Source of the DNA: a virus
Lineage: Duplodnaviria > Caudoviricetes
DNA length: 51,934 nucleotides
Direction: 5' to 3' (one strand)
Virus record (IMG/VR): IMGVR_UViG_3300035564_000113
Location: 1-51,934 of that record
Shown here: positions 744 through 42,005 of the stretch, piece by piece
Position numbering within the stretch: position 1 is the first letter of the stretch
Layout of the letters: every line of letters starts with the position of its first letter
The notes under the pieces: generated by a model
The model's input: only the letters and a program-made list of their open reading frames with translations
Told to the model about the DNA's origin: nothing
Database searches by the model: none
Made by a program: the position numbers and the translations under genes

Positions 744-767
744 GGGATCAAGTTTGAAGGTTTGCGG

Positions 768-3831: not shown

Positions 3832-3917
3832 AGAAATTGGCGGGTGCCTCAGCTTACGTTCTGTTTACCAGCGGGCCAGGTTTCTTCATCCGCGCTGGCG
3901 GTGCCCTAAAGTGTGAG

Positions 3918-4343: not shown

Positions 4344-4379
4344 CGGTTAAAATTCCATCGAAGACACGCCCATGGATTT

Positions 4380-4631
4380 TCAGGTACTTTTTCCATGAGC
4401 GGCTTCCATCTCCTCAAGATCATTCGCCTCAGCCATGAGATTTTTATAGCGTTTATCCAAATCTGGGTTGGCCAAGCGGACTGCGCACATGGCCATCGGC
4501 GCGCTCCCGCAATCCCCCATCGTGTCCATCTTCGCGGTGATCTCGTTTAGAAGGACCTTGAAATCGGCGCCGATTTCTTCCTTTGATCGTGGCACGACTT
4601 TAATGTTTGGTGTATTCATTTCGTTTTCCAT
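4380..4631 (-). CDS. Hypothetical protein
   Basis: 83-aa ORF. Confidence 0.6.
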   Translation of the reverse strand: MENEMNTPNIKVVPRSKEEIGADFKVLLNEITAKMDTMGDCGSAPMAMCAVRLANPDLDKRYKNLMAEANDLEEMEAAHGKST

Positions 4632-4660
4632 GTTAATGATGGCCCTATGGCGGACTTAGT

Positions 4661-4801
4661 TCAGTAGCGAATATGACGAAGGGCGGATCTGCGACCGGAA
4701 GCGATGCCATTAACGTAGCCCAAAACAAAGCCGATTATTCCGCCAGTGAGGACACAGGCGAAAATGAGATGATGCGAAACGTGAACGATGGTGGCAATCA
4801 C
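4661..4801 (-). CDS. Small membrane protein (not in ORF track)
   Basis: GTG start overlapping the upstream stop; 46 aa with hydrophobic LIFACVLTGGIIGFVLGYV. Confidence 0.5.
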   Translation of the reverse strand: MIATIVHVSHHLIFACVLTGGIIGFVLGYVNGIASGRRSALRHIRY

Positions 4802-5025
4802 GTGAGTTCGGTGTAGGGGTTCGACGCCACAATTTTCTCAACGACTTTTCGTTGTGATTGCCCTTCGGGGCTCGAGGCGAATTCCTTTCGGCGGCGGCGG
4901 GTTTCCCAACCGAGTTTCGCTGCATCTGAATGACGAATGCGAATTTCGCCGAGTTCACGTGGGCTCATCAGCCATCTGCGAGGAATTCCGATTCCCCGGA
5001 GGATGGTTCGGAAATTCAGTTTCAT
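4798..5025 (-). CDS. Basic hypothetical protein
   Basis: ATGA overlap with the KTSC gene. Confidence 0.6.
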   Translation of the reverse strand: MKLNFRTILRGIGIPRRWLMSPRELGEIRIRHSDAAKLGWETRRRRKEFASSPEGQSQRKVVEKIVASNPYTELT

Positions 5026-5258
5026 GTGAGTTCGGAGTGGCGGAATCTGCCGCGGATGGCGGAGAAGAAGAAATTGCCGTGGGATTTGGCGGACATCAGA
5101 TCGTGGTGGAGGTGTGGAGGAACGCCGTGGTAGCGGTAGGTCTTGCCGCCGTTGGCGAATTTCACATCAAGGGTGTTGGTGGCAGGGTCGTAGCCGACCG
5201 CGGCGAGGTGGGAAGACTTGATGGGGGAGAGGGGGAGGCGGGGTGCCTGAGTATTCAC
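5022..5258 (-). CDS. KTSC domain protein
   Basis: SSHLAAVGYDPATNTLDVKF..G..YRYHGVP......LMSAKSHGNFF...IRGRF. Confidence 0.9.
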   Translation of the reverse strand: MNTQAPRLPLSPIKSSHLAAVGYDPATNTLDVKFANGGKTYRYHGVPPHLHHDLMSAKSHGNFFFSAIRGRFRHSELT

Positions 5259-27091: not shown

Positions 27092-27313
27092 TTATATAGC
27101 CTTTGCGCATTCTTCGCTGCAATAGGTGCCGTTCCACCAATAACCGGGTGCTATACGATTATGCGTGATCCGATTACAGCAAGCGCAATTCACGTATATA
27201 GACGGCGCCGATTTAGCAGATGGGAAAAGGCGTTCAAATTCATCTTTAGAAACGGTTGCCACTAGATCGCCACTAAAAACCTGAAACGTTAGTTGTTCAG
27301 TTTGTTGGTTCAT
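27092..27313 (-). CDS. Small Cys-motif (TRASH/Zn-finger-like) protein
   Basis: CACC...YCSEEC. Confidence 0.55.
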   Translation of the reverse strand: MNQQTEQLTFQVFSGDLVATVSKDEFERLFPSAKSAPSIYVNCACCNRITHNRIAPGYWWNGTYCSEECAKAI

Positions 27314-28101
27314 GATTCCTTCCAGTGGAGTTCAGAGTGACCCCAGTAGTTTGTAATCGGCATGTGATTTCCTTCGACGAAAGGCACGTCCTGATAGAGC
27401 GGACGATCGCCACGCGACGGGATGCCGACGATGTTCGGGCAGAACACCCGCTTATTGTTTCCGATGAGCGCGGCCATCAGTGAAAAGGTGGAGTTCGCGC
27501 GCAACAAGATGTCCGCGTTCATCAGCGCGTAGAAATCGGGCAGGAATCCCAGCCCCTTGTCGAGCGCGGGATCTCCACCGCGAGAGTGTTCGTTCCCCTT
27601 GACCGGAAACCCTGGCAGAACGATGGGATCTTCTTCGGAGATAAAGCGGAGCTTTGTCGCGTCGATTCCAAATTTCTCGCACGCCTTGAAGTAGGACTTG
27701 CTGGAAATCGTCACGAAGTCATCAAGTCCAACGAAGTCAGCCCAGCGCAGATGCGCGGCAACCTCGAAATGCGGAACGGCTTTGAGCATCTCCAATATCT
27801 CGGGCCGAAACGTGAACCATTTCCGAGCCTGCGCCCGCGTGTAGTACAGGCTGTGCTGATGCAGTCCACCGCCTGAAATTCGGATGTCCGTCTCGCCTGC
27901 CCAGTCTTCGATGGTATCCTCACTGCGTTCGTGCATGTTCATGCTGGCAATCGGAGGATCGTCGATCATGAAAACCTTCTGCCCCATCCACGGGTTTGTC
28001 TGGAGCGTGCAGCCGTAGCGTTCGGCGTAGCCGCGCACGAAGGCATATTGTGCCATACGATTGCAGAATCCCTCTTGAAGAATGGTGGTGATGACGCTCA
28101 T
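27310..28101 (-). CDS. Glycosyltransferase, GT11 (alpha-1,2-fucosyltransferase-like)
   Basis: GFCNRMAQYA, AHLRWADF, DFYALMNADILLRANSTFSLMAA. Confidence 0.8.
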   Translation of the reverse strand: MSVITTILQEGFCNRMAQYAFVRGYAERYGCTLQTNPWMGQKVFMIDDPPIASMNMHERSEDTIEDWAGETDIRISGGGLHQHSLYYTRAQARKWFTFRPEILEMLKAVPHFEVAAHLRWADFVGLDDFVTISSKSYFKACEKFGIDATKLRFISEEDPIVLPGFPVKGNEHSRGGDPALDKGLGFLPDFYALMNADILLRANSTFSLMAALIGNNKRVFCPNIVGIPSRGDRPLYQDVPFVEGNHMPITNYWGHSELHWKES

Positions 28102-28847
28102 GGAATCACCCGTTGCAGTGTCGCCAAAATCTTCGCCCGTTTCTCGCAGGCGTGGGTACTTCCGGCCATCGTCGGACCCCAGCCGTATTGCTTGTTGAGG
28201 TCAGAGTAACGCTGCCGCGTCTCGTCATATTCTCGCGCGATTTCTTCGATGGGTCGGATGTGGTGAAAGTGAAGCAGGTAAGTGCTGGGGATGTTTGGCG
28301 TCACCGGATTTGCAAACGGCGTTCCGTCTTGCAGGTGCCCGGTGCAGACGTGAGCGCCGCACCCGAAATCAATATCATGAATTCGCTTCGGCGAGAACAG
28401 TATTGGCTTCGCGTAATCAACGTCATCTTTTCCGCCCATCTTGATTTCATCGTAGACCTGCCCGGTGCAGGTCGGAAACACGTCTGATAGCATCTCCCAG
28501 CCGTAGGGCTTGACGACCGCCACGCCTTGTTGCGCGTAAGAGTCAAGCGTTGGGCCAACCCCAGCCGGGAAATAGATCAGTTCATCGGCATCAGCACAGA
28601 TCACCCAGTCGGCGTCAGTCCCACGCCATGCGGCGTTTTTAAGTTGTTTATTGAGGAGGTCATTTATCTTCCCTCCGGTATCGAAACCAATCACATCGAC
28701 TCCAAACTTCTTGGCAATCTCGCGCGTGCCATCAGTCGAGAAAGCGTCATGCACCACGATGCGATCACAAAAGGTTTGGTAGTGGCGCAGCGCGTAGGCG
28801 ATGAACGCCTCTTCGTTGAAAGTGATGAGGTGGGCTTCGATTTTCAT
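28098..28847 (-). CDS. Glycosyltransferase, GT2-like
   Basis: FNEE..I...LRHY, HDAFSTDGT, WVICADADE. Confidence 0.85.
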   Translation of the reverse strand: MKIEAHLITFNEEAFIAYALRHYQTFCDRIVVHDAFSTDGTREIAKKFGVDVIGFDTGGKINDLLNKQLKNAAWRGTDADWVICADADELIYFPAGVGPTLDSYAQQGVAVVKPYGWEMLSDVFPTCTGQVYDEIKMGGKDDVDYAKPILFSPKRIHDIDFGCGAHVCTGHLQDGTPFANPVTPNIPSTYLLHFHHIRPIEEIAREYDETRQRYSDLNKQYGWGPTMAGSTHACEKRAKILATLQRVIP

Positions 28848-29611
28848 TTTCTGACCCAAAGGGCGTGTGGGCAGTCCGACAACCCAAGCGGCTCTTCGGC
28901 GATGAGGTTAAAGTGCTGTTCGATCATCGGACGGAAACTAACCGGGAATTTCTCGTTCCACAGTGCGTAGGCACTCCCCATTGTCCCGTGTGATACGGTG
29001 AAGAGGAATGGCGTACCCATCGACACGATCACATCAATCCAGTTCTGAACCTGTGCCGGCGAACACTCGTTCCACGAGTGGATATTAATGGCGACGTGCG
29101 GCCGCATCGTAGCCGAATCGGTTATGAACTCATCCAGTGTCAGCACTTTCACGGGCGGATAGAAACGCTGGCAGTAGTAGCGGCAAAGTTTCGTGCTGAT
29201 GGGAATCGCGTCCACGCAAGTCATCGTGTGCGTCAGTGGGGCGAGCATCACCGCCAACCGGCCGTAGCCTGCGCCAATCTCTAGGATGTCTGCATAACTA
29301 AGTTCCATTGGCAAGTGGCGGCGCAGGAAATCAATTTCGATGTTCGCCTCCAGCCACATTCGATTGACGCGCCCAAGCGCCGGTGTATCGACCATGCGCG
29401 CCCCGAATTCCTCATCACGACTTTTCCCGCAAGGATCAGCCATGAAGCAGGTTAATTTGTCTACTTGCTCGGCAGCACGGCAGAACCGTTCTTCGGCCGG
29501 GTTGCCCTGTTCGACGTAAATGGCATTGGCGGCGAAGTACGGCAGCGCATCGCGCACCACTTCGCACCACGTTTTCCACATGCCACCGTCAGATAGGTCT
29601 TCTGGTTTCAT
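28844..29611 (-). CDS. Putative sugar O-methyltransferase
   Basis: ILEIGAGYGRLA SAM motif, INIHSWNEC. Confidence 0.8.
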   Translation of the reverse strand: MKPEDLSDGGMWKTWCEVVRDALPYFAANAIYVEQGNPAEERFCRAAEQVDKLTCFMADPCGKSRDEEFGARMVDTPALGRVNRMWLEANIEIDFLRRHLPMELSYADILEIGAGYGRLAVMLAPLTHTMTCVDAIPISTKLCRYYCQRFYPPVKVLTLDEFITDSATMRPHVAINIHSWNECSPAQVQNWIDVIVSMGTPFLFTVSHGTMGSAYALWNEKFPVSFRPMIEQHFNLIAEEPLGLSDCPHALWVRK

Positions 29612-30948
29612 TCGGAGATTTTGATGAATGCCACCTGCCACGCTTTCCCGATCACCTGAATCTCTCGCGCGTAGATCGCCAGAAATGAGTCGATCGCCAT
29701 CTTCGGCCGGTCAATCGGAAGCGGCATGGAGTCCCATGCGTAGTCGTCACAGATCATCACGCCTCCGATCTTGAGAAGACGGAAGGCGAAAACCATATCG
29801 GAGAGTGCGCCTTTCGCGGTGTGCAGTCCATCCACGTAGATGAAGGACAGACTTGCCGGGAAGGTCGGAAGCACGTTCCCAGAGTAATCCTTGATGATCG
29901 TGCATTGCGGGAAGCGGGCGAGCCGAGCCCTGGCGGCTTCTTCAATGTGAGACACGTCAATTCTGTGCAAGACGTGCTCAGGACTTCCGGTGAACGGATC
30001 ACAGCAGAAAAATTGCGCCCCGTCGCCAGTCACGATGTTGTCGCAAAACCATTCGGCAGATTCGCCCTGGAAGGTGCCAATTTCCATCCCTACCACACCT
30101 TTCTTGCCCTGAAATGGAGCGAGCCATTTGAGCCAATTAGGGCCGTGTGCTCGGCCGGTTTCTGACTTGGCGATGTTCACCACTTGAGCCGAAGGGATCG
30201 GGGGTGTTGGGATTGCGATGGGCGTTCGCGGCGTTTGAAAGAATCCGGCATAGTTGCCGGCGTCGTCTCCGATTAACTCGCACAGCTTTTCCAGCTTCGG
30301 GTCATCCTTCGCCGCTGAGTCGCGCCGGACGTGTGCCGGCCCGTACCCAACTTTTCCCGGCATCGCCTTGATGCCAATAACCATTCGCCGGCCGTAGATT
30401 CCGTTTGGGCTCAAGACCATCTTCCGGTTCGGTGCCAGTTTCCAAAGCGGCTCGTCAATAAAAGCGTCGTTGTCCGGAGAGCGCATGATTCCGTTGCAGA
30501 CCTCAAGTATGAGCGGAAAGAACCTGCGACCAATGGCGGTTGAACACAAGCTGGCGTGGGTGGCGTTCGTGTGCGAAAACCACGTTCGGTCCCGCACGTT
30601 GTAGTATACGGCCCAGCCCTCGCCGACTAAATCGAGATTGGCCAATTTCTCAGCGCACCACGCAATCCAGTTCTCGCGGTAGAAATCGTCATCCTCAATG
30701 AAAACGAGCGCATCGCCCTTCACTAACCCGCCGACCAGCGCCATGCGAACCTTACTGACCATGCTTTTCTTGCCGCGAAACTCCGGGCAGTAGATGTATT
30801 GCTGACCCATCGTCGGAACAATGGGTTTGTCTCCATCGTCGAGAACGAGCCATTGGTCGGGCTTGCGAGTCTGCCGCGAAACATATTTTTCGCAGAGAGC
30901 GAAAGCCTCGGGGCGGTCGGCAGTGCAGGTGATAGCGGTAATGAGCAT
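29608..30948 (-). CDS. GT2-like glycosyltransferase fused to a class I SAM methyltransferase
   Basis: N-terminal ITCT..RP, VLDDG, FIEDDD; C-terminal EIGTFQGES, IYVDGLH, GGVMICDDY. Confidence 0.85.
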   Translation of the reverse strand: MLITAITCTADRPEAFALCEKYVSRQTRKPDQWLVLDDGDKPIVPTMGQQYIYCPEFRGKKSMVSKVRMALVGGLVKGDALVFIEDDDFYRENWIAWCAEKLANLDLVGEGWAVYYNVRDRTWFSHTNATHASLCSTAIGRRFFPLILEVCNGIMRSPDNDAFIDEPLWKLAPNRKMVLSPNGIYGRRMVIGIKAMPGKVGYGPAHVRRDSAAKDDPKLEKLCELIGDDAGNYAGFFQTPRTPIAIPTPPIPSAQVVNIAKSETGRAHGPNWLKWLAPFQGKKGVVGMEIGTFQGESAEWFCDNIVTGDGAQFFCCDPFTGSPEHVLHRIDVSHIEEAARARLARFPQCTIIKDYSGNVLPTFPASLSFIYVDGLHTAKGALSDMVFAFRLLKIGGVMICDDYAWDSMPLPIDRPKMAIDSFLAIYAREIQVIGKAWQVAFIKISE

Positions 30949-30957: not shown

Positions 30958-31668
30958 CTATCGTGTGAGGTAATCGAACGAATGGCTTGGCATGTAGCGG
31001 GCGAACCGCTGTTGAAGGAAGGCCAGATTCTTGGCGTGCCACTCGCGGCACTGCGGGACCATGGCGGACGTAGCGCCGCGGTAATGCGTGAACGGAAGGT
31101 CAACACGGTGCAGATTGTAGCCGGCCTCGCGCATCCGCAGCGATATGTAGGCGTCCTCTCCGTAGGCTCCCTCAAGCTCTGGCGGAAACAGGCCGGGCTC
31201 CACGGCGCGCACCTTCTCGGTATCCATGCAAAGCATCGCGCCCTCCAGATACTCGAAACGCGGGCCAACCTCGCCGCAGAAGTCATCGCGCAACTGGCAG
31301 CACCCGCCCGCCGGCCCAGTCATGGCGCACTTCGGATCGACTGCGAACGGAGCCTTGAGCACGTCAAGCCATCCGCGCGTAACCACCGTGTCATCGTTCA
31401 GCATGACAAAGTATTTGCCCTTGGCCCACGTGAACGCCCGGCGATTCGGCATAATAAATCCCATGTTTTCCGAATTGTGAATGGCACCGACTTTGCCGGG
31501 ATATGCGAATTTCATTTCCTCGAAAAACCTCTCGACCTCGGTCGATCCTCCATTGTCCGTCAGGATCAGCTCGAAGTCACCGCCAGCCGATAGCACGGAG
31601 TCTATGCAACGCTTCGCCATCGGCAGCGCCGTGTACGTCAGGATCGATATGGAGAATTCAGGCGTCAT
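30958..31668 (-). CDS. Glycosyltransferase, GT2
   Basis: ILTDNGGS, NMGF...N, MLNDDT, YGEDAYISLR. Confidence 0.88.
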   Translation of the reverse strand: MTPEFSISILTYTALPMAKRCIDSVLSAGGDFELILTDNGGSTEVERFFEEMKFAYPGKVGAIHNSENMGFIMPNRRAFTWAKGKYFVMLNDDTVVTRGWLDVLKAPFAVDPKCAMTGPAGGCCQLRDDFCGEVGPRFEYLEGAMLCMDTEKVRAVEPGLFPPELEGAYGEDAYISLRMREAGYNLHRVDLPFTHYRGATSAMVPQCREWHAKNLAFLQQRFARYMPSHSFDYLTR

Positions 31669-31985
31669 TTTGAGTCGTCCCATTTGCCGATGGTGCGCAG
31701 GAAGGCTTCGGCGCGTTGGGAGGAAGTAGCAAAAATGCAATCAGCTAGAGCCAAGCATCCGGGCGAATTTCTCAATTCGGCCAATGTGAGCACGAACTTA
31801 ACCTTCTGCATAGCAGTCCGCGTCTTCTCTGCCTCGTGCATGGCGTTGAGGTCGGAGGGGTATTGTGGAACTTCCGATTCGGCATGAACCATATCATCTC
31901 CGGGCAACCACCAATCACCCGCATGTATGCCTTTCTTCCATCCGCACGCCTCCGCAATCGCGATCCGTTGTGCTTCAGGGGTCAT
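31665..31985 (-). CDS. Phage ABA-sandwich-like protein
   Basis: IAEACGW...PQYPSDLNAMHEAE...QRAEAFL. Confidence 0.55.
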   Translation of the reverse strand: MTPEAQRIAIAEACGWKKGIHAGDWWLPGDDMVHAESEVPQYPSDLNAMHEAEKTRTAMQKVKFVLTLAELRNSPGCLALADCIFATSSQRAEAFLRTIGKWDDSK

Positions 31986-32194
31986 GGGATTTTGCTGTAC
32001 TTGGCCGCGCAATCCTCGATTCCAACCCAGAGTTCACGTAGGCGGCATAGTTGGTTTTCGAGCGGCTCGTTCAATTTGAAAGGCATCTGGTAACTGAACG
32101 TCTTCCCTTCAGGGGTCTCAAAGAGCATTTGAAGTTGGATGATGCCGAGAACCTCGTGAACCAAAACAATGTCGATGAGTCGCCAAGTTTTCAT
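31982..32194 (-). CDS. Hypothetical protein
   Basis: Trimmed to MKTWRL; ATGA overlaps. Confidence 0.55.
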   Translation of the reverse strand: MKTWRLIDIVLVHEVLGIIQLQMLFETPEGKTFSYQMPFKLNEPLENQLCRLRELWVGIEDCAAKYSKIP

Positions 32195-32328
32195 TTCTTG
32201 CTCCTTCGTTTCGCGAGCGCCGAGTAGTACGCCGAGTCGCCGCGGCTGCGTGACGGCACTTTCTTGCCCTTCGTCTTCCCGCCCAGAGCGGCGAGATACT
32301 TGATGACTTCGGGATGCAACGGCTTCAT
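32191..32328 (-). CDS. Small basic protein (45 aa; not in ORF track)
   Basis: MKPLHPEVIKYLAALGGKTKG...YYSALAKRRSKK fills the gap with 4-nt overlaps on both sides. Confidence 0.6.
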   Translation of the reverse strand: MKPLHPEVIKYLAALGGKTKGKKVPSRSRGDSAYYSALAKRRSKK

Positions 32329-32588
32329 TGCTCAAGTCGAAGCTCGATGATTTTGTGTTGGTGAAGCGCCTCAAGTAAAACTCGGGCGTCATTCGATATT
32401 GGCGATGAACCTGAGGCAGCTAACCCCTTCAAAAATGATTCCGCGTGCCCACCTTCATGGATCGTAATTGTGCCCTCAAGACTCCCGTCATGGCCAAAGA
32501 ATTCCCTACAGAAAGCCCACTTGAACTCTGTATCCAGATGGCGATTCATTACGGGTGAAACTGGTTTCCAGACAAGCGTCGTGCTCAT
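32325..32588 (-). CDS. Hypothetical protein
   Basis: MSTTLVWKP start (or 32624). Confidence 0.55.
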   Translation of the reverse strand: MSTTLVWKPVSPVMNRHLDTEFKWAFCREFFGHDGSLEGTITIHEGGHAESFLKGLAASGSSPISNDARVLLEALHQHKIIELRLEQ

Positions 32589-32620
32589 GCCGCGCACCGT
32601 GCGCGTACCGTTTGAGCTTG

Positions 32621-33250
32621 TCAAGGAGAAATCGTGCGCGTGATGGTATGTTGGGAAACCTTCTGCGATGGCTTGATGATTTCCTCATAGGGAAGCCCGT
32701 GTTCCATCCTACGTTTTAGCCCGGGAACTGAGATGCCTATTTCCTTTGCCCACTCGGCGGCAGTTTTGGTAATCCCGTTCAAAACGATTCGTTCTGACCT
32801 GATACGCTCGCTGGGTTTCGCGAGAAGATCACGCCCTGTCCATCCGAGCTTTATCCGAACTGACATGGTGGGGCGACTAATGCCGGATTCATCTGCCCAC
32901 TGGCTTGCCAGTTTTGATACCCCGTCGATTGTAATTGGTTTGTTACTACGTACGTTTCTCATGTTGGTTGTCCGAGTAACCCAGCGAACATTGCCCGGCT
33001 CATAATTACCGTTGTTGTTGGTACGGTCTAATTCGAGTTCGGGAGATTCGGGCAATCCAACATCGGCGACAAACTGCATGAAGTTGTTCACCCACTGGTC
33101 GCAGATCTTAATGCCGCGGCCACCGTAATCGGCATAGGTCGCATTGCTCGGGTTTAGGCATCGGTCCTTGATGCTCTTCCACCGAAAGAAAATCGACCGT
33201 TCGATTTGGTTCATCGCTTTGACGCAGTAACGCAGTTCATATCGTATCAT
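32621..33250 (-). CDS. HNH-type homing endonuclease-like protein
   Basis: WKSIKDRC.NP....YGGRGIKIC.QW, LDRTNNNGNYEPGNVRW, two C-terminal HTH-like repeats. Confidence 0.85.
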   Translation of the reverse strand: MIRYELRYCVKAMNQIERSIFFRWKSIKDRCLNPSNATYADYGGRGIKICDQWVNNFMQFVADVGLPESPELELDRTNNNGNYEPGNVRWVTRTTNMRNVRSNKPITIDGVSKLASQWADESGISRPTMSVRIKLGWTGRDLLAKPSERIRSERIVLNGITKTAAEWAKEIGISVPGLKRRMEHGLPYEEIIKPSQKVSQHTITRTISP

Positions 33251-33459
33251 TTTATTTTGGGTTGACGGTTGTGAGTTTATCTGAGAGTAGAACACCAATC
33301 TTAAATGTCGGGCCTGATTGCCCCGACTAAAACGCGCCAAGCGCGATTCAGATTCGGCCTGTGAAGGATTGGCCGCCCTTGCAGAAAAACGGGAGACACT
33401 GTGTTCATCACGGATAAACATACCTTCCAAACATCAATCGTCAACTCTAATTTAAAATC

Positions 33460-34656
33460 ATGGCCAACTTGACAAACATCAATAGTTACTTTCTTACCCG
33501 TCGGTCGCAATTTGAGCAGAACATATTTGCAAGGTTTTGGACAACCGATCCCAATGCTGGGCTTATTGAGCAAAAGCCCTTCGAGCTGGAAATGGGCCTG
33601 ACGCCGACCGTAGTGACGGCGACGCACGATCTGCCGACGAGCTACCTGCCGCTGACGCAGACGGCGCTGGCGCTGTCCAACGGCACGGGCAACACGGCGT
33701 GCAACCCTGGCGTCGTCACGATTGGCGGCGGCTACATCACGCGCAACTTCAACCTGACGGTGAATGCGTTCCAGACGGAAGTGTTCTGCCTGACGGATCT
33801 GCAATTCAAGTTCCAGTGGGAGCAACAGGCGCGGTTCCGCGAGAAGGGGCTCGGCGACTACGTGACGCAGTTCCAAGGTGACTGGGGCCGCGTCAACAAC
33901 ATCGGCCAGCTCAACACAAAGATCAGCACCACGGGGGCCGGCGTCTTCACGCAGGCGACCAGTGCGTTGTTCGATTTCAGCGCGCTCGCCGGCTCACTGC
34001 CCACGGTGGCACTCGACTGGGCGATGCTCGGCCAACTCTACGACCGGCTCAATCAAATCGGCGCGCAGCAAAACGCGGTTGGCATGAGCGACGGTACGCC
34101 GGTGTACGCGCTGAACGTCGGTCCCGGACTCAAGCGGTTGCTCTACCAAGGCAGTTCGACGGCGGCCAGCCTTGTCCGCACGTCGGTTGACTTCATGGAC
34201 ATGGGCAAGGAGTACAGCCGGAACTTCCTGGCGCGGGGCATCGACACGGCGATCAACGGCTTCCTTCCGAACGTCGATCTGTGCCAAGTGCGCTACGATT
34301 CGCAGTTGAATCCGCTGTACCCGTATGTGAACAACCCGGTGACGGTCGGCACAGGCGCGGCGCCCAACCCCAACTACCGCACGGTGGCGAACGGCGGGTT
34401 GGCGGTTTACGAGGCGTTCACGGTCATGGCGCGCGGGGTGTACTCGAAGCGCCCGCGGCCGGTCGGACCGTTGCAGGCTGGGCTGGAGGCGTTCAATCCG
34501 GTGACGTACAGCGGCGAGGTGCGCTGGATCAACAACCCGGACATGAGCACCAATGCGCTGGGCAACTTCGGTTTCTACCGGCTGGACATCCAGCAGGCGG
34601 CCATGCCGGAGTTTCCGGAGCTGGGTTTCGCCGGGATCACCATCGCGGTCGATTGA
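33460..34656 (+). CDS. Major capsid protein
   Basis: 398 aa, strongly GC3-biased codons, followed by a hairpin; no other candidate; no diagnostic motif. Confidence 0.75.
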   Translation: MANLTNINSYFLTRRSQFEQNIFARFWTTDPNAGLIEQKPFELEMGLTPTVVTATHDLPTSYLPLTQTALALSNGTGNTACNPGVVTIGGGYITRNFNLTVNAFQTEVFCLTDLQFKFQWEQQARFREKGLGDYVTQFQGDWGRVNNIGQLNTKISTTGAGVFTQATSALFDFSALAGSLPTVALDWAMLGQLYDRLNQIGAQQNAVGMSDGTPVYALNVGPGLKRLLYQGSSTAASLVRTSVDFMDMGKEYSRNFLARGIDTAINGFLPNVDLCQVRYDSQLNPLYPYVNNPVTVGTGAAPNPNYRTVANGGLAVYEAFTVMARGVYSKRPRPVGPLQAGLEAFNPVTYSGEVRWINNPDMSTNALGNFGFYRLDIQQAAMPEFPELGFAGITIAVD

Positions 34657-34771: not shown

Positions 34772-37270
34772 ATGAAACGCCTCTACTCGCTTTTCTTCAC
34801 ATTCGCCATGTTGGCGAATATCAACACCGCCCAGGTTGTGCCAAAGGAGAATGTGCAGCACGTTTTGGGAACAGGTAATTATGTTGGATCGAATGCCGGT
34901 GCGCTGCTCTTTACAACACCGAATGGCGGCGGGGCTGCTTTTAATTCTGTTAATACGATTGTCGCTCTTCGCTCATTGTCGATCACCGGAATGGCCAATG
35001 GCGCGCAAGGTGGCGTAGCTGGATACTATGCCGTTGGCGATGGAGGCGGAGGGCCGACGCGGGTGCTTGTCACCGGGCAGCCTGCGGGCACGTACACTGA
35101 TAATGGAGGTAGCGTCATCGTGCCGACTGGCGGTAATGGTTCTGCGGCGTGGTTGTGGCAGTATACTGGGGCAATAAATGCGCGTTGGTTCGGAGCCTAT
35201 GGCGACGGAACGCACGATGACACCGCTGCAATTCAGGCAGCGATCAACGCAACTGGCACAGCGGATTATTCGGTTGGAACAGGGGCGATGACTACCGTTC
35301 GCGGTCTTGAGGTATACGTTCCGCGCGGCACATATCTAATCACGACGCTCAACCTAAAGCGTGGAATCGTGATCCGTGGCGAATCCATGAACAGTACGGT
35401 TTTCATTCATGCGTCGGCAACGGGAAATGCGTTCAGTTTTACCAACGTAGCCGAATACGTTTCCAGCGTGCAGGACGAGGTTCACTTGCGGGACTTTTCT
35501 ATGTATCAGTCAACGCACCCCGCGTCGGGGAGCGCGATTGACTGTACCCCAACAACGTCGGCAAGCCGCACGCTGATTGATAACGTGACGATCAGCAATT
35601 TCTTCAATGGAGTGACGTTGAAAGCGCAGATCAACTCAAAGTTGAACAACGTATACATCAACGCTTATTACGGATACGGTTTTCACTTGGAGGGCACGCT
35701 TTCGTCTTTTAGGAATTGTTATGCCACGCAAGGGGTAAACAATGGCAATGCGTTCGAGTTTGAGGGTTGCGTCTACTGTAGCGCATACACGTGTTCTGCG
35801 GACGCATCTGGCGGCGCTTCGTTTCTGTTGTCGAATTGCCTTTCGACGAATCTTTATGGGTGCGCTGGAGAGGCGAACGTCTATGGCGTGAAGGTGTTTC
35901 AGTCTTACGGGTGCATCGTTGATGGATTCTTCCTTAATGTCGGTTCCACCACGATCAACTACTTGAATCTAGTGTCGGCGTACCAATGCGAATTTCGCAA
36001 TCTTTCGTATCAGGGGTTGGCTCCCGGTTACGGGAGTGGATGGGCGGTGGCTGGCGCGGATTCTCCGGTCAACGTGCAGAACTCCGTTTCGTTTGGGCAT
36101 GTGTCGGGTTCCACGGCGTTTGCGACTGGCTGGGTTCAGTCTCCGAGCGCATTTGCGAACATCTTGCTACCCGATAGCATGACCGAAAGCAAATCCAGCA
36201 CTCGCTCCATGGGTCCGGGATTGGTCGCTTTCCCGTATAACTGCAACGCGGCAGGAATCCCGCCGGCCACTACGGGCGTTTCGCTGGGGTACAATTATTC
36301 TGGCGGAGACGCAGAGGCGAACATCATTTGGGGAACGGGCTATTCGGGCTCCCCCTTGCAGTTTGCCGAATGGAGTGGAACGGCATTGACCGAGCGAGCG
36401 CGAATCGTAAACGGGAACCTTCTTTTTGGAACCACTTCGGCTACGGGACTGACAGGTGTTGGAGGCGTTAAAATCGCGTCAACCACGGCAGCGTCTTCCA
36501 GCACGGTAGGATCTCTCTTGGTTGGGAATGGAACGGCGGCGACTAACGTAGGAATTGGCGGCGGAAGTATCAACGCCGGAGCCGGTATCACGTCTTCTAC
36601 GGTCGGGTTTTCAGCCACGGCTACCGGGACCGGACTTGGGCTACACGGCGGCGGGGCGATCACCGGGGCATCTGGAGCAATCACGCTGACGGGATCGGGG
36701 ACAAACCAGAACGTCACTCTAACTCCGAGCGGGGTTGGGTACACGTTGCTGAACGGAAACGTCGGAATCGGGTCTGCGGTTCCACCGAACGCATTGTCAG
36801 TAGGAACGCCGAATGGCGCATACGGGAAGGTTGGAATCAAGCAAAGTGGAACCGCTACCTATACCGGCCTTTGGGTCGAATCATCTGATGTAAATTCCAA
36901 TACGATTACGGTTGGGCACAGCGGAACTTATGGTTCGGTCAGCACAACCTATGGTACCGGAGTCGGCGGAGGGCCGACGTACTTGGTGCTGGAAGAGTTT
37001 GGCGGTGATGTTGAAATCGGAGGCGCAGGCAACACGCTAAAGATAAAGGCCGGAAGCAATTGCCTTGCTGGCACCGTTGTTCTTACGACCGGATCAGGCA
37101 CGATCACAAGCACGGCCATTGACGCCAACACCGTGATTTTTCTTACACTCAGGACGGCAAACGGCGCGGCATCCGCTCCGCTGGTAACGCTTGGAACCGG
37201 CAGTGCGACAGTGACCGGGCTTGCAACGGATTCAGGCACATATAACTGGATTGGTTTCAAGGCATACTAA
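34772..37270 (+). CDS. Tailspike / tail fibre with pectate-lyase-3-type beta-helix
   Basis: GYYAVGDGGGG head motif, NARWFGAYGDGTHDDTAAIQAAI, VYVPRGTY, GNVGIG repeats. Confidence 0.85.
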   Translation: MKRLYSLFFTFAMLANINTAQVVPKENVQHVLGTGNYVGSNAGALLFTTPNGGGAAFNSVNTIVALRSLSITGMANGAQGGVAGYYAVGDGGGGPTRVLVTGQPAGTYTDNGGSVIVPTGGNGSAAWLWQYTGAINARWFGAYGDGTHDDTAAIQAAINATGTADYSVGTGAMTTVRGLEVYVPRGTYLITTLNLKRGIVIRGESMNSTVFIHASATGNAFSFTNVAEYVSSVQDEVHLRDFSMYQSTHPASGSAIDCTPTTSASRTLIDNVTISNFFNGVTLKAQINSKLNNVYINAYYGYGFHLEGTLSSFRNCYATQGVNNGNAFEFEGCVYCSAYTCSADASGGASFLLSNCLSTNLYGCAGEANVYGVKVFQSYGCIVDGFFLNVGSTTINYLNLVSAYQCEFRNLSYQGLAPGYGSGWAVAGADSPVNVQNSVSFGHVSGSTAFATGWVQSPSAFANILLPDSMTESKSSTRSMGPGLVAFPYNCNAAGIPPATTGVSLGYNYSGGDAEANIIWGTGYSGSPLQFAEWSGTALTERARIVNGNLLFGTTSATGLTGVGGVKIASTTAASSSTVGSLLVGNGTAATNVGIGGGSINAGAGITSSTVGFSATATGTGLGLHGGGAITGASGAITLTGSGTNQNVTLTPSGVGYTLLNGNVGIGSAVPPNALSVGTPNGAYGKVGIKQSGTATYTGLWVESSDVNSNTITVGHSGTYGSVSTTYGTGVGGGPTYLVLEEFGGDVEIGGAGNTLKIKAGSNCLAGTVVLTTGSGTITSTAIDANTVIFLTLRTANGAASAPLVTLGTGSATVTGLATDSGTYNWIGFKAY

Positions 37271-37321
37271 TCCAATGATCCTCCCCACCTTATTAGCTTC
37301 CGCCGCCCGTCACTACTTGCC

Positions 37322-37693
37322 ATGACCTACTTTTACTGGTTTCTCGGTCTGTTCGCGGTTGGTCTTGCAGCGGTGATCTATGTCTTCCGTGGAACGTGGA
37401 ACAGCATCGCCAACGAGATGGCTGACCACGCGAAGACCTATGCCATCGCTTACACGGTTGGAGGCGCGCTCATCTTCATCGCCGCTGGCACTCAGTTTGA
37501 GCAAAGCTACTACGCCTTAGACGGGAAAATGCAGGACTCAATGCCATGGGCTCCCTACGTCGTTTTCTTCTGGAAGCCAGTCGCAGCCGGACTTACTACT
37601 CTCGTGGCCTTCCTTAACCGCTCGATTGAGCGTGCTCAAGAGGTTCGCCGCAACGCTCCTACTCCCGATAATCAACCCGCTAAAGTACCATGA
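37322..37693 (+). CDS. Putative holin (multi-TM)
   Basis: About 3 hydrophobic segments, charged tail, position. Confidence 0.5.
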   Translation: MTYFYWFLGLFAVGLAAVIYVFRGTWNSIANEMADHAKTYAIAYTVGGALIFIAAGTQFEQSYYALDGKMQDSMPWAPYVVFFWKPVAAGLTTLVAFLNRSIERAQEVRRNAPTPDNQPAKVP

Positions 37694-38037
37694 AAATCCG
37701 CCTCATCATCGCAGTAATCGCGCTGGCCCTGCTTTCGGGCTGCGCTACGTCAACGCAGAAGAATGCCGGTGCCTTCCTCGCCAAAGTCGCCAGCATGAAC
37801 ATCACGGCGGCTGACGTTAGCCAGTCCACGACCGGGCCGTTCTACAACCATAGCGAGTCTATCAGCGGGCTTCACCACCAACCGGGCTCGTTCTCGATTG
37901 AGAATCTGAAAGCCGAGTTTGGCATCCCGCTGTGGGGCGTCAAGTGGTCGTTCTCGGCCTCAGCTATCTCGGGCGAGACACCGCAGGCCGTCGCCGCCGT
38001 CGCTACCGCCGCCGTCAAAGAGCCAACCACCAAATGA
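37690..38037 (+). CDS. Lipoprotein
   Basis: Signal peptide with lipobox LSGC. Confidence 0.8.
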   Translation: MKIRLIIAVIALALLSGCATSTQKNAGAFLAKVASMNITAADVSQSTTGPFYNHSESISGLHHQPGSFSIENLKAEFGIPLWGVKWSFSASAISGETPQAVAAVATAAVKEPTTK

Positions 38038-38741
38038 TCGACCCGCTAGTAGGCATCAGGCTCGTGCAGGAAGCCTACGCCACGGCCTTTTTGGCTACTG
38101 GCGTGATACCTGACCTGTCTCGCTACGGTTTGGCCGCACAGGGCACCATTTACGGGCCGGAAGGCGACTTCTCGGTTCCGTATGGCTTCCTGCTGGAAGT
38201 GATGGCCAACGGCGATCAGGTGATAGTGCTTCGCGGCACGAACTCGATTTGGGAATGGCTGGAAGATGGCCAGATTCACATGCACACGAACCCTTGGGGG
38301 CCGGGGCTGGTGCATGGCGGGTTCTCAGACATCTGTGGGGCGCTTGGGATAGGTCAGCAGCGCACGCCAATCATCGACGCCATCACGAACCTCTCGCGGC
38401 TGACCATCGTGGGGCATAGTTTGGGCGCTGCGGTTGGCCGGCAGCTCTGCGCCAAGCTGGGCCACGTCGGCGCGATCTACACTTGGGGGGAGCCGCGTTC
38501 CTGCAATGGCGATGCCGCTGGCTACGCGCTCAACTGCGCCACCGTCTCGCGCCGTGCCCGCAACCCACGCGATCTTGTTCCGAAAGTGCCGGTGTTCGAC
38601 CCTTGCCGCCTCTTCGATGGCTACCGCCACGCTGGCGACCCCATCCTGCTTGCCGCAGTAGGTTCAGACCCCATTGACGCCCACTCTGTAACGACGTACA
38701 TTAGCCTCGAATGCCCTTCACCATGCCCGACGAAGACCTAA
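38034..38741 (+). CDS. Lipase class 3 (alpha/beta hydrolase)
   Basis: IVLRGT, VHGGF, GHSLG, YTWGEPR, DLVPKVP, DAHS. Confidence 0.92.
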   Translation: MIDPLVGIRLVQEAYATAFLATGVIPDLSRYGLAAQGTIYGPEGDFSVPYGFLLEVMANGDQVIVLRGTNSIWEWLEDGQIHMHTNPWGPGLVHGGFSDICGALGIGQQRTPIIDAITNLSRLTIVGHSLGAAVGRQLCAKLGHVGAIYTWGEPRSCNGDAAGYALNCATVSRRARNPRDLVPKVPVFDPCRLFDGYRHAGDPILLAAVGSDPIDAHSVTTYISLECPSPCPTKT

Positions 38742-39079
38742 ACCGCCTGCGTACCGTTCTCGAAGAAGCCGGCAAGTTCTCCGACACGATCAGCAAAATC
38801 CTCAACGCGGCCCGCGTGCTTGGCGCTATCGTGGTGGTCTGCGTTGGCGGCTGCATTACCTCGATTCTGTGGGTGAACGCGAAAGCCGCTTCCATCGACA
38901 AGCTCGAAGCGTGGACCGCCCAAGCCGACCTTGACCGCAAGGAGATGATCAAAGAGTGGACCATGTGGCGCAGCGACATCGAAAAAGTCTTGGCCAAACT
39001 CTCCACGAATCAGGAGATGGTTATCCGACTACAGGGGCAACAGGCCGATCTCATCGCGCGCCATCTGGATAAACCGTAG
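38711..39079 (+). CDS. Single-TM coiled-coil membrane protein
   Basis: One TM segment followed by a coiled coil. Confidence 0.65.
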   Translation: MPFTMPDEDLNRLRTVLEEAGKFSDTISKILNAARVLGAIVVVCVGGCITSILWVNAKAASIDKLEAWTAQADLDRKEMIKEWTMWRSDIEKVLAKLSTNQEMVIRLQGQQADLIARHLDKP

Positions 39080-39118
39080 TTGCTGCGGTTGCTGCTAAAT
39101 CGCGGCGGCGTGTTTGCG

Positions 39119-39147
39119 GTCGCTGATAACTATTTCTTATCATCGAC
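39119..39147. other. 11-7-11 inverted repeat, dif / tyrosine-recombinase-site-like
   Basis: GTCGCTGATAA-ctatttc-TTATCATCGAC. Confidence 0.45.
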
Positions 39148-39213
39148 AGGATTGCTCAATGAGTGGTTAGGTTGGTCAGGGGATTGCGGCGCAGAGGCAG
39201 TGAGAGGCGCGTC

Positions 39214-39233
39214 GGTCATCTTAGGTGTTCGGC
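39214..39233 (+). mobile_element. attC-like right half-site
   Basis: GGTC-atcttaggt-GTTCGGC, same 9-nt spacer sequence as site A. Confidence 0.55.
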
Positions 39234-39234
39234 A

Positions 39235-39405
39235 CTAGCGTTTTCTCCAATCATAAACGATGTTGTTTATCGCTCGGTCTATAGCTCTCCACTGTTTATT
39301 CGCGCGAGTAGCACATTTCGATTTTGCCGAACCAGACGCCCGAGCCAACGGCGCGGAAACGTCCGTCCGGCTGGCCTTAGTGGTGAGTGTCGCGCCGTGG
39401 CTCAT
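39235..39405 (-). CDS. Cassette 1 ORF, 56 aa (not in ORF track)
   Basis: MSHGATLTTK...VYDWRKR; ATG lies in the right arm of site A. Confidence 0.45.
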   Translation of the reverse strand: MSHGATLTTKASRTDVSAPLARASGSAKSKCATRANKQWRAIDRAINNIVYDWRKR

Positions 39406-39418
39406 CTTAGGTTTAGGC
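39326..39418 (+). mobile_element. attC-like site A
   Basis: GCCGAAC-N9-GAGCCAACGGCGCG...CGCGCCGTGGCTC-N9-TTAGGC (G of GTT missing); one unpaired base. Confidence 0.75.
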
Positions 39419-39727
39419 TTGCCTGAGTGTTTCGTTTATGTTCACGCGAATTGGCGATTTCTTCCCCACTCCGCAGGTGGCTAGTGCGGCATCGGCTCGC
39501 ACGAGCATTTCTATGAGGCGCTGGATTTTCAGCGCGTCGGATGCTTGCCACGCAATGAGGTTGGAATACCCATCTCGGAGCCGGGCTATTTCCGCCATGC
39601 GTTTTTGCGCGAGGTCATGCCAGTACTTTCCGTGCTCGGAAGGAGACAAAAATCGCCTAACCAAGCGTCCAGAGCCAACGGCACTGACGTGCCGTTGGGC
39701 GGTAGTCTTCTTTCTTTTCGTTGACAT
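39413..39727 (-). CDS. Cassette 2 ORF, hypothetical coiled-coil protein
   Basis: MSTKRKK start inside site B; TAA stop is the TTA of the site A core. Confidence 0.65.
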   Translation of the reverse strand: MSTKRKKTTAQRHVSAVGSGRLVRRFLSPSEHGKYWHDLAQKRMAEIARLRDGYSNLIAWQASDALKIQRLIEMLVRADAALATCGVGKKSPIRVNINETLRQA

Positions 39728-39768
39728 AGAATTGTCCTCAGTGCCGCGGCTCATACGCGGCGTTCGAT
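39655..39768 (+). mobile_element. attC-like site B
   Basis: GCCTAAC-N10-GAGCCAACGGCACTGA...TCAGTGCCGCGGCTC-N9-GTTCGAT. Confidence 0.8.
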
Positions 39769-39965
39769 TTGTCCACGAGCCGTAGGAGTTCGTCGCGGCA
39801 GTACAGAAGATTGGCGGTATCTCCGAGGGTCTGGTGATACCGATTAAGCCAAGTCTCTGCGAGGTATTCGAGTTCCCGGTGCAGCGCCGAAATCGAACCA
39901 GTCGCCACAGCGCAATTCGCACGCTGGGCCTCGGGGGCGGATACAGAGTCAGGGAGAGTGCTCAT
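39738..39965 (-). CDS. Cassette 3 ORF, hypothetical
   Basis: MSTLPDS start in the site C arm; TGA stop in the site B arm. Confidence 0.65.
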   Translation of the reverse strand: MSTLPDSVSAPEAQRANCAVATGSISALHRELEYLAETWLNRYHQTLGDTANLLYCRDELLRLVDKSNAAYEPRH

Positions 39966-39986
39966 GGCTGGTCTTTCAAGTTCGAC
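39892..39986 (+). mobile_element. attC-like site C
   Basis: ATCGAAC-N9-CAGCGCAATTCGCAC...GTGCTCATGGCTG-N9-GTTCGAC; imperfect stem. Confidence 0.65.
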
Positions 39987-40201
39987 GTGAAGGCGGACGC
40001 TGGCACCCACACGACGATGCCCACGTAATCAGCGGCTTTCCCGGCCATCACGCTGCGGGCGAGTTGCGAGGCTACTTCGGGTTCGGTCGAAAATGTGACT
40101 TCCGCGTGGGTTTTCTTTTGTTCCATTGCCACGAAAGAGCCGTCGAGTCGTTGATGTTTTAGGCCGTTTCCGGCGCGTTGCAGTAGTTCAATGAGTCTCA
40201 T
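39962..40201 (-). CDS. Hypothetical protein
   Basis: ATGA overlaps; ends within site C. Confidence 0.65.
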   Translation of the reverse strand: MRLIELLQRAGNGLKHQRLDGSFVAMEQKKTHAEVTFSTEPEVASQLARSVMAGKAADYVGIVVWVPASAFTSNLKDQP

Positions 40202-40449
40202 GGTTTTCTTTCGATGAATTTGCCTTTCTTGGCTCGGAGCTGGTGGATGACCCAGCGTTCGTCAACACTCAGGATCACCTTCTCGTACCCCATCCTTCTG
40301 AGGATGGTGTAGACGTAGGTTTCGGCGACGCGCAACTCAGCGGCGATGTCCTTGACTTCGCGTGACTCTGCGATGCCGCGCACGCAGGCGTTTTTTAGCG
40401 CGTCGGTTTCTGCGGGTGTGCGCTTGTGCTGGCCGGGGCGGATTTTCAT
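40198..40449 (-). CDS. HTH DNA-binding protein
   Basis: EVKDIAAELRVAETYVYTILRRMG. Confidence 0.7.
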   Translation of the reverse strand: MKIRPGQHKRTPAETDALKNACVRGIAESREVKDIAAELRVAETYVYTILRRMGYEKVILSVDERWVIHQLRAKKGKFIERKP

Positions 40450-40453
40450 GGGA

Positions 40454-40894
40454 TTAATAGTCGCCATCTTGCCAGTTGAGTTTGGCATCTTTCCATTGCG
40501 CGGCTCCTCCAAGTGAGTTGAAAAGCGCACGAGCTTTTGCCGCAAGTTTGATTGCCTTGTTTCGTTTTAGCTTATCGGCCTTACAGTCTTTCTCATATCG
40601 AGCCGTGACTTCTTCCCGATAGCCCTTGCAATGGCCAAACTGACGGTTCCAATCGTCCGTTGTCAGTTTCTTCATGGCCTCAACTCGGAAAGCGTCGTTG
40701 CCAATTTCCGCTTCGCTTTTCACGCCACGAATTGGAGCCATTCCAGCAATGATCTTTTCGAGGCCAACGATAGCGGTTACTGCGCTCTGCCCCTCGGGAA
40801 TTTCTACGGTCAAGTCATAGCGCACATTCTCGTAGTTGCCGAGGTTGTAGAGACGCCCGACGGTGATTCTGCTGATGCGTGCTTGTTTTTTCAT
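40454..40894 (-). CDS. Hypothetical protein
   Basis: GRLYNLGNYENVRYDL, a motif common in phage proteins. Confidence 0.65.
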   Translation of the reverse strand: MKKQARISRITVGRLYNLGNYENVRYDLTVEIPEGQSAVTAIVGLEKIIAGMAPIRGVKSEAEIGNDAFRVEAMKKLTTDDWNRQFGHCKGYREEVTARYEKDCKADKLKRNKAIKLAAKARALFNSLGGAAQWKDAKLNWQDGDY

Positions 40895-41406: not shown

Positions 41407-42005
41407 GGGATTAGTTTCAGGATTTCAGGTCTGAGAAGTGGCGAAACGTCGAACCACGCGACCGTAGCGAAGTCGCACGGGTTTCCCCAGTCTGCGGCGT
41501 CAGGATAACGCTTGCGGGCGACCTCGCGCCAGCCGGTGGGAGGCTCTTGGTAAATATCCATCTTGGCTGTGCGCGTGCGCTCCGTGCGCTGGGTGGCAAT
41601 TTCGTGCCAATGAGCCGCGACCGCCATCGGGCCGCAGTTGTCGAATTTCTTGCGCACGTAGCGGCAACCGCGCTCCAAATCTTCGGCGGTCACGGTCGGG
41701 TCAACCTCGCGGATTTCAGCCAGCGCCTTGCCAATCGTTCCGGCGGCGGCTCGGGTGATCTTGCCGTTGTGCCCGAATCCGGCTGCTATGGCGTCGAAAA
41801 GCACATTGCGACCGTTCACTGCTCTGGCCTTCTTCGGCATTTCCTTGGCCAAGGCGGGGCGCAAAGCGGCGAGCAGGGCATCTTCCGTCAGCTTGTACGC
41901 CGGGTTACCCTGGCGGGCCGCCATCACGGCAGCCCAGCACGCCCGGGCGACGCGCGTAGCGGCGTCTTCGGGCGGCATTCCGGGGAGCTGGGGTGTCGCG
42001 ATCAT
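41403..42005 (-). CDS. Hypothetical protein (possibly replication-related)
   Basis: Trimmed to MIATPQL; ATGA overlaps. Confidence 0.55.
   Translation of the reverse strand: MIATPQLPGMPPEDAATRVARACWAAVMAARQGNPAYKLTEDALLAALRPALAKEMPKKARAVNGRNVLFDAIAAGFGHNGKITRAAAGTIGKALAEIREVDPTVTAEDLERGCRYVRKKFDNCGPMAVAAHWHEIATQRTERTRTAKMDIYQEPPTGWREVARKRYPDAADWGNPCDFATVAWFDVSPLLRPEILKLIP

Follow-up and report, generated by a model that had tools for sequence, protein, structure and literature searches.

A probable decayed integron cassette array with attC sites of a Verrucomicrobiota family in a phage without an integrase

The IMG/VR virus record IMGVR_UViG_3300035564_000113 is complete at 51,934 bp, carries direct terminal repeats and is referred to here at its full length as the window; it contains a small cluster of integron-type attC sites at positions 39210-39988. 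This region is likely what is left of a decayed array of integron cassettes, of the kind called a CALIN (cluster of attC sites lacking an integrase); its sites belong to an attC family of Verrucomicrobiota, and the array now lies in a phage without an integrase. Reading the region as attC sites of a CALIN is right for two sites, A and B, and plausible for a third, C, and for a partial site at the left end, site 0. At least two closely spaced attC sites and the absence of any tyrosine or serine recombinase from the record fit the description of a CALIN. Searches of the whole 51.9-kb record give no match to PF00589 (tyrosine recombinase), for which the positive control matched in 14 of 14 genomes, and no match to PF00239 (serine recombinase); the lack of a tyrosine recombinase also distinguishes the region from a complete integron. 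An original prediction for this DNA had described a CALIN-like array in a genome with no tyrosine recombinase, and both statements hold, with A and B being attC sites of an intI-linked family in one orientation. Every motif and coordinate that it gave is found in the sequence.

The sites are listed below, with R'' and R' denoting the end boxes and L'' and L' the stem arms. Bit scores are those of R1, a covariance model built from 33 diverse bacterial sites (alignment A2) and containing no window sequence.

39210..39233, plus strand: site 0, a putative 3' attC remnant (distal L' arm, 9-nt spacer ATCTTAGGT, R' box GTTCGGC), recognized by its identity to site A
39324..39420, plus strand: attC site A, 47.2 bits, with an intact 13-bp L stem carrying a bulged A, and R'' GCCGAAC
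39653..39770, plus strand: attC site B, 29.5 bits, with R'' GCCTAAC, R' GTTCGAT and a bulged A
39890..39988, plus strand: candidate attC site C, degenerate, 14.5 bits; R'', both spacers and R' fit the family and the L stems are lost
39675..39698, no strand assigned: perfect 10-bp hairpin CCAACGGCAC / GTGCCGTTGG with a 4-nt loop, which captures the L'' arm of site B

Site A is laid out as GCCGAAC (39326-32), 9 nt, GAGCCAACGGCGCG (39342-55), a 35-nt loop, CGCGCCGTGGCTC (39391-403), 9 nt and TTAGGC (39413-18), and its 5' arm reads GAGCCA(A)CGGCGCG. Site B lies in the same orientation 233 nt away and has the order GCCTAAC (39655-61), 10 nt, GAGCCAACGGCAC (39672-84), a 56-nt loop, GTGCCGCGGCTC (39741-52), 9 nt and GTTCGA (39762). 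The extra A predicted in the 5' arm of both sites is present, and the exact 11-mer GAGCCAACGGC occurs twice in the whole window, at A and B only. Site C has the boxes ATCGAAC (39892-98) and GTTCGAC (39980-86), 9-nt spacers and a stem of only 4 bp (CAGC/GCTG), and is overlapped by the open reading frame (ORF) X2 and by the end of gene X1. A repeat finder pairs A with B (19 nt, 84%) and A with C (18 nt, 83%), and shows 39210-39226 in site 0 to be identical to 39396-39412 of site A at 15 of 17 positions.

AAC is present in A, B and C, and GTT in B, C and site 0. The boxes GCCGAAC and ATCGAAC each differ from the motif RYYYAAC at one position, a column in which 12 of 70 family sites have G. The core of A reads TTTAGGC and is missing the G of GTT, which all 70 family members possess; the 9-nt spacer of A runs directly into TTAGGC, and the same spacer in site 0 is followed by GTTCGGC. 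Of the three full attC sites originally predicted, A and B stand, on their layout and R1 scores, but C, with its 4-bp stem inside X2, does not stand as a full site. The right half-site proposed at 39214-39233 gains support from its similarity to A and its proper GTTCGGC, but no family profile matches it, and the stretch upstream of it does not fold as an attC.

Sedentary chromosomal integrons have lineage-specific attC families, such as that of the Vibrio VCR arrays, and the window sites can likewise be placed in a family. When the two stem arms of A and B are combined into a gapped pattern, it matches 22 loci in viral contigs, 16 of which by our count have the complete layout (AAC, 8-11 nt, stem, loop, stem, 8-11 nt, GTT) together with mutually complementary end boxes. 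The same pattern has at least 138 matches in at least 120 loci in a collection with one genome per prokaryotic species. Among the matches listed, 63 in 46 loci show the full layout, and by our count 42 of these 46 loci carry labels such as Limisphaerales, Verrucomicrobiae, Opitutaceae and Pedosphaera, which we take to be Verrucomicrobiota lineages; the original guess of a Verrucomicrobiota host agrees with this range. Matches without the full layout come from assorted GC-rich genomes and look like chance, and the A-type pattern has no match in metagenome contigs.

The family is tied directly to integron integrase genes. TIGR02249, the integron integrase model, is matched above its curated cut-off in all four array-bearing genomes (G001-G004) and in none of 14 control genomes, so that the comparison with chromosomal attC sites of Verrucomicrobiota that had been suggested finds the same family beside intI in each of the four. 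R1 identifies 53 sites near those intI genes (23, 21, 5, 3 and 1 per locus), in all of which the top strand points away from intI; the distance from the gene to the closest site is 0.4-1.8 kb. The family boxes are R'' GCC(T/G)AAC and R' GTT(A/C)GGC, and all 70 aligned sites possess AAC, the G of GTT and the bulged A. In this 70-site alignment, which was fitted to the model and so favours structure, 96.9% of cells pair, compared with 85.7% in shuffles and 18-43% in slid controls, and compensatory changes are seen at 14 of 18 pairs. An R1 match at E <= 1e-6 is present in 11 of 151 sampled genomes of the phylum (G001 included).

When R1 is run on the whole window with filters off, site A scores E 2.9e-10 and site B E 1.2e-5, and the minus-strand readings of the two sites reach just 15.5 and 11.0 bits; the plus-strand scores are far above these, and the top strand is thus the plus strand. 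Site C (E 0.099) is the next-best plus-strand match after A and B, and the best unrelated match in the window, at 12493-12541 (-), has 10.9 bits and E 0.85. Because the search pattern was derived from A and B, and R1 was trained on exact matches to that pattern, the stem part of the A and B scores arises partly by construction, and the flanks were therefore scored separately. A profile of the R'' box and 5' spacer of the 53 intI-linked sites, columns that lay outside the search pattern, has A, C and B, in this order, as its three best matches in the window, at E ~2 for each. With a profile of the 5' half, A has E 5e-4, B 9e-3 and C 0.053, and noise begins at E 1.9. The closest relative of site A is an attC site in locus L025 (record G017), which is 87% identical over 85 nt; the window sites have diverged from all bacterial copies seen, and their best matches are viral.

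Independent of the stems is a signature at the cassette junctions. Complementary cassette ends are the attC family's own recombination signature: in the intI-linked arrays, R'' pairs better with the preceding R' than with the R' of its own site at 38 of 48 junctions, equally well at 10 and worse at none. The complementary segment ends originally predicted in the window are confirmed (GTTCGGCA/TGCCGAAC, TTAGGC/GCCTAA and GTTCGATTT/AAATCGAAC), and the same signature is seen at all three window junctions. R' of site 0 and R'' of A are complementary at 8 of 9 positions, versus 4-5 for A's own R'; R' of A and R'' of B at 6 of 9, versus 4 of 9 for B's own R' (4 versus 4 if R' of A is read from G39411); and R' of B and R'' of C at 9 of 9, versus 7 of 9 for C's own R'. 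Since each R'' fits the preceding R', the window cassettes appear to have been joined by integron-type recombination at G|TT. This joining could have preceded capture, in a bacterial array, or have occurred within the phage, and the signature fits both. A single simple insertion at a non-attC site is disfavoured by site 0, which keeps an L' arm and spacer and not a bare GTT.

The window sites look eroded when compared with the family: A lacks the G of GTT, B is predicted to misfold, C is without stems and of site 0 only a 3' part remains. Computed with DNA parameters, the probability of the bottom strand taking up the family fold, termed pfold, has a median of 0.28 in the 70 aligned sites and 0.29 in the 53 intI-linked bacterial sites (1 of 53 below 0.01), and is 0.013 for A, 2.6e-5 for B and 0.002 for C. 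The free energy of site A is no better than that of shuffles (z -0.57 and -1.13), and its main stem still forms in the minimum-energy fold. The stem of site B has one A.C mismatch and an A just after L', where 70 of 70 family sites have C, and its minimum-energy fold on both strands is the local 10-bp hairpin at 39675-39698 and not an attC shape. This hairpin, which competes with the attC fold, is followed by a T-rich run on the plus strand, where a terminator-like scan match lies at 39690-39704, and it may be a weak terminator. Site C folds no better than shuffles (z +0.58 and +0.32). The attC-type folding anticipated for the bottom strands is thus seen in the main stem of A, but pfold is low in A, B and C alike, and judged by these predictions the window sites are probably poor or dead recombination substrates today.

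The sites delimit three mini-cassettes of 184, 350 and 218 bp, which are given here with the ORFs within and beside them.

39228..39411, plus strand: cassette 1, consisting of ~98 nt of AT-richer DNA and attC A, bounded by R' of site 0 and R' of A
39413..39762, plus strand: cassette 2, consisting of gene X3 (bottom strand) and attC B, bounded by R' of A and R' of B
39413..39754, minus strand: X3, a real gene, its frame open back to an ATG at 39754 in the L' arm of attC B
39763..39980, plus strand: cassette 3, consisting of most of X2 (bottom strand) and degenerate attC C, with R' of B and R'' of C complementary as above (9/9)
39738..39965, minus strand: X2, a 75-aa ORF running from an ATG at the L' position of site C into site B
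39962..40201, minus strand: X1, a phage gene of 79 aa (phrog_6851, E 1.5e-6), the right flank of the array
39219, 39405, 39754 and 39965, minus strand: L'-arm ATGs, the starts of ORFs of 29, 56, 113 and 75 aa
38711..39079, plus strand: a 122-aa gene, the last of the converging plus-strand block, in the flank outside the array

X3 is the most informative of these genes. Its conserved core, of ~78 aa, begins near 39652, where the 78-aa gene call in the record also starts, and its stop codon TAA sits in the R' box of site A. There are three homologues at 62-68% identity, in one of which (P0002) an N-terminal extension matches the translation of a B-like attC, indicating that the X3 gene and its site travelled together. 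X3 is predicted to form a three-helix bundle (pLDDT 83), belongs to no Pfam or PHROG family, and gives no match at E <= 0.001 in a fold search of the PDB (239 with E <= 10); no relatives were found in the viral contigs or metagenome contigs searched. We note separately that homologue P0004 begins with MSH, which leads straight into the conserved core, as though the attC that separates the L' ATG from the gene had dropped out.

Cassette 1 has no convincing gene. Its ORFs (X4, 56 aa, minus strand, and one of 74 aa, plus strand) have codon scores at or below zero, and their sole 'homologue' is the translated attC of L025; a relationship of X4 to HigB-like toxins was rejected, as its E-value of 0.048 fails the cut-off. 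X2 has a codon score of 0.078, the best of six frames, and is an ORFan whose sole database match is itself. The last codons of X1 overlap the 3' end of site C. The L' arms of all four sites read GG(C/T)CAT or GCTCAT, and as a consequence four consecutive minus-strand ORFs start at an ATG inside an attC; the T that creates this ATG is present in only 11 of 70 family sites. Paralogous protein N-termini were considered as a cause of the similarity between A and B and were rejected, the shared DNA lying in different frames in X3 and X4.

In the scenario that we favour, an integron integrase acting on folded bottom strands would have made and joined the cassettes, which would have entered the phage either through IntI-catalysed insertion during infection or through illegitimate recombination with a host array. 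After entry the cassettes would have decayed, with at least one cassette gene (X3, read along the minus-strand operon of the phage) retained as an ordinary phage accessory gene.

Several observations weigh against the region being the remnant of a Verrucomicrobiota cassette array. The stem scores of A and B are circular to the extent described, leaving the flanks, the intI linkage and the junction signature as the independent parts of the evidence. A profile of the 3' half finds A only, and with a profile of the 3' spacer and R' box of the intI-linked sites no window site is among the matches listed. The pitch of the window cassettes lies at or below the small end of that of the bacterial arrays (289-638 bp, in loci L156 and L159), and the credible window genes are on the bottom strand, whereas 35 of 42 bacterial cassettes from two long arrays have their longest ORF on the top strand. 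No X3 homologue was found in a bacterial array among the genomes searched, 0 of 401 (phylum of G001) and 0 of 301 (order of G003), so that a bacterial origin of the cassette is not demonstrated. Finally, the description of the sites as eroded rests on folding predictions and family invariants, and a cognate IntI might tolerate them.

Other viral records carry the same family and bear on how the window array should be read. R1 matches are found in all 15 viral records tested, which represent the 16 full-layout loci (two in one record), and number 17 in G013, 15 in G005, eight each in G008 and G014, and five in G007. G014 is a distant relative of the window phage (terminase 47% and portal 38% identity), and six of its seven aligned sites have pfold below 0.01. 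G008 (L161 and L162) is a 39.3-kb viral record rated 100% complete, in which eight R1 matches in one orientation at 31104-34011 (+) are flanked by a lambda-family portal gene at 28196-30001 (-) and a gpA large terminase gene at 35559-37364 (-), and no tyrosine recombinase is found in the record. Five of its sites in alignment A4 have pfold values of 0.24-0.81, and by this measure the G008 sites look intact.

Some of the remaining records are of a different nature. TIGR02249 is matched above its cut-off beside the sites in the 'viral' records G010, G012 and G017, and below it in G016; in G017 (L025) IntI is at 32472-33122 (-) and the attC at 33227-33325 (+). The 99-bp 'direct terminal repeat' of G005 (L170-L172; 1-100 and 44553-44650) is an attC site, with 15 R1 matches around the ends, and the circular or complete status of this record may be an assembly effect of repeated attC sites. 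G013 (L168 and L169), a 32.4-kb 'viral' record, has its 17 matches in two opposed arrays at 88-5101 (+) and 27153-30682 (-); it has no tyrosine recombinase, and its two largest ORFs have no Pfam match. Bottom-strand ORFs were rejected as a systematic trait of phage arrays, the situation being mixed across G005, G007, G008, G013 and G014.

A different relationship between phage and host would be seen if the window array were an active exchange platform, at which the host IntI excises, inserts and reorders phage cassettes and the phage samples the host cassette pool, as the original prediction had envisaged. We consider this quite unlikely. In its favour, the sites match the host family, array-bearing hosts commonly have intI, the junction signature shows IntI-type joining, and attC arrays recur in 15 of 15 viral records including G014 and G008; furthermore, IntI1 recombined phage attC sites in vivo at five of six sites tested, according to the parts of the paper available (PMC9892861). 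However, A is without the invariant G at the cleavage triplet, the pfold values of B and C are far below the family median, site 0 is a fragment, and the signature could predate capture, having been made in a bacterial integron. On these grounds, which include the folding models, ongoing shuffling of these particular copies by a host IntI seems unlikely.

A broader proposal, which we regard as rather unlikely, is that Verrucomicrobiota phages form a second, integrase-less arm of the cassette pool, in which phage lineages unrelated to each other (the window phage with its relative G014, and the lambda-like G008) would time and again acquire host-type attC arrays, with host IntI acting in trans during infection to move small cassettes between phage and chromosome. 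If this were true, the attC type would mark phage host range and cassettes would be a shared currency of phage-host conflict, and the window array would be an old, decaying deposit of cassette traffic.

An assembly artefact, in which a piece of bacterial array was mis-joined into a phage contig or the record is not a phage at all, is very improbable. Repeated attC sites do confuse assemblies, as the terminal repeat of G005 illustrates, and some 'viral' records with sites carry a full IntI (G010, G012 and G017). In the window, however, two chimeric joins within 0.8 kb would be needed, and the phage gene X1 (phrog_6851) runs into the 3' end of site C, in a minus-strand gene row that extends through X2 and X3. 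The GC content is unremarkable at 0.54-0.59, the sites have diverged from all bacterial copies seen and match viral ones best, and the terminal repeat of the window, an exact repeat of 123 bp, is not an attC. The record also encodes a large terminase (phrog_2, E 2e-13).

Inverted repeats that arose by chance, or common terminators where converging genes meet, with no relation to integrons, are an extremely unlikely explanation, and for A and B it is already refuted. In its favour, A and C have free energies no better than those of shuffles, B holds a terminator-like hairpin with a T-rich run, and the region is one where two operons converge; against it stand the R1 E-values of A and B, the identical architecture in intI-linked arrays, the flank-only profile that ranks A, B and C as the top three, and the junction signature. 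RNA hairpins that sequester start codons, or terminators, are likewise an unneeded explanation once the family is tied to intI. A tRNA or tRNA-like array, suggested by the resemblance of GGTTCGA to a T-loop, was rejected, as ARAGORN finds no tRNA in the window, and an Rfam scan of 38500-40700 gives nothing relevant, only two chance matches to snoRNA families (E 1.8 and 9.2).

Cassette arrays without an integrase have been described in phages before. A survey of phage CALINs (Qi, Rajabal, Ghaly, Tetu and Gillings 2023, Front Microbiol; PMC9892861), in the parts available, reports 17 CALINs in 10,705 NCBI phage genomes, in both temperate and virulent phages, and includes IntI1 recombination assays. 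The window array is accordingly a further example and not a new kind of element. Like those CALINs it has at least two attC sites and no integron integrase, a group that includes phages without an integrase; the published cassettes are also small, often of unknown function, and some lie beside terminator-like inverted GTTRRRY motifs (PMC9892861, same parts). Unlike them, as far as these parts of the paper go, the window sites are visibly eroded and belong to an attC family with a direct link to arrays beside intI in the phylum of the presumed host. The main text of the survey makes no mention of Verrucomicrobiota or IMG/VR, and no literature on attC arrays in Verrucomicrobiota phages was found, judged by titles and abstracts.

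With the Verrucomicrobiota arrays of G001-G004 the window shares the attC family, the R'' and R' boxes, the bulged base in the 5' arm, the variable loop, the complementarity of R'' to the previous R' and a pitch of a few hundred bp. It differs from them in lying in a phage without intI and with no recognized attI or cassette promoter Pc, although no search aimed at the latter two was made, in having only ~3.5 sites, in its bottom-strand genes and in its degraded sites.

A possible route into the phage is suggested by work on cassette insertion outside integrons (Loot et al., bioRxiv 10.1101/2022.09.11.507474), which, in the parts available, shows IntI-catalysed insertion of cassettes at genomic attG sites and proposes their domestication with loss of the attC. 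The window resembles the SALINs and small CALINs of that study in that cassettes lie outside an integron with no integrase nearby. Unlike the attG insertions described there (same parts), the left end of the window array is an attC fragment (L' arm and spacer) and not a bare GTT, and a simple single attC x attG insertion therefore does not explain the array. Insertion into phage DNA is not part of that work, as far as the available parts extend.

The window array provides a clean and checkable case of integron cassettes in an integrase-less phage, with the donor attC family recognized in the phylum of its presumed host. The family also gives a host assignment for an uncultivated phage, to Verrucomicrobiota and possibly to an Opitutaceae-like host, and the pattern of erosion shows the fate of attC sites outside an integron, where the cleavage G is lost, rival hairpins arise and stems are overwritten by coding sequence. 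A by-product may outweigh the window itself, in that other IMG/VR records prove to have arrays of 5-17 sites when scored with the family model, among them at least one undoubted phage, some complete integrons filed as viruses and one attC 'terminal repeat'. This recurrence of host-type attC arrays in uncultivated phage records is a wider lead that deserves a systematic survey, which could show how frequent cassettes are in phages and how often such arrays mislead virus-calling and completeness estimates.

Comparisons with related phages provide little context for the array. Terminase relatives of the phage are 56-70% identical and come from fragments that are 24-37% complete; none of the five searched contains sites of the attC family, and one relative, G662, has no match for any window ORF from the region below 44.7 kb. 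No relatives were found in viral contigs through an 832-aa protein or the lipase-like protein described below, relatives of a 163-aa window protein are only 28-50% identical, and blastn of the window against a phage collection gives no match.

Among other features of these sites, we note that window positions 41446-41454 read ACGTCGAAC, an exact 9-nt complement of the site C R' sequence GTTCGACGT. It lies 1.46 kb beyond site C, inside a 231-aa minus-strand ORF, and is followed by a stretch resembling the inner arm of C; the chance of such a 9-mer in the 2.5 kb scanned is ~0.01. Neither R1 nor any family profile matches at 41446-41454, and a fourth cassette is therefore not claimed.

An unusual arrangement is seen in three Verrucomicrobiota genomes, where a common GTTTTCACACAG(C/G)CTCTC takes the place of the R'' box and of some of the 5' spacer in an attC site (L115:1364-2874, L089 near 3616-3657, and L039 at a contig end). 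In L115 a 474-aa DDE transposase (DDE_Tnp_1_6, DUF772) is encoded just upstream, and these sites may reflect an insertion sequence that goes into attC sites at one set point. A group II intron was rejected as the source of the replaced R'', there being no Rfam match and a DDE transposase instead.

The array lies at the meeting point of a plus-strand gene block, whose last stop is at 39079, and a minus-strand block. The 122-aa gene that ends the plus-strand block has the top codon score of the region (0.163 per codon) and no Pfam or PHROG match. Shortly upstream of the array, at 37935-38738 (+), is a gene for a class 3 lipase/esterase-like protein (PF01764, E 5.5e-10; phrog_21992). A hairpin at 39119-39147 (GTCG.TGATAA / TTATCA.CGAC), 40 nt past the stop codon of the 122-aa gene and with no T-run after it, may be the terminator of the plus-strand block.

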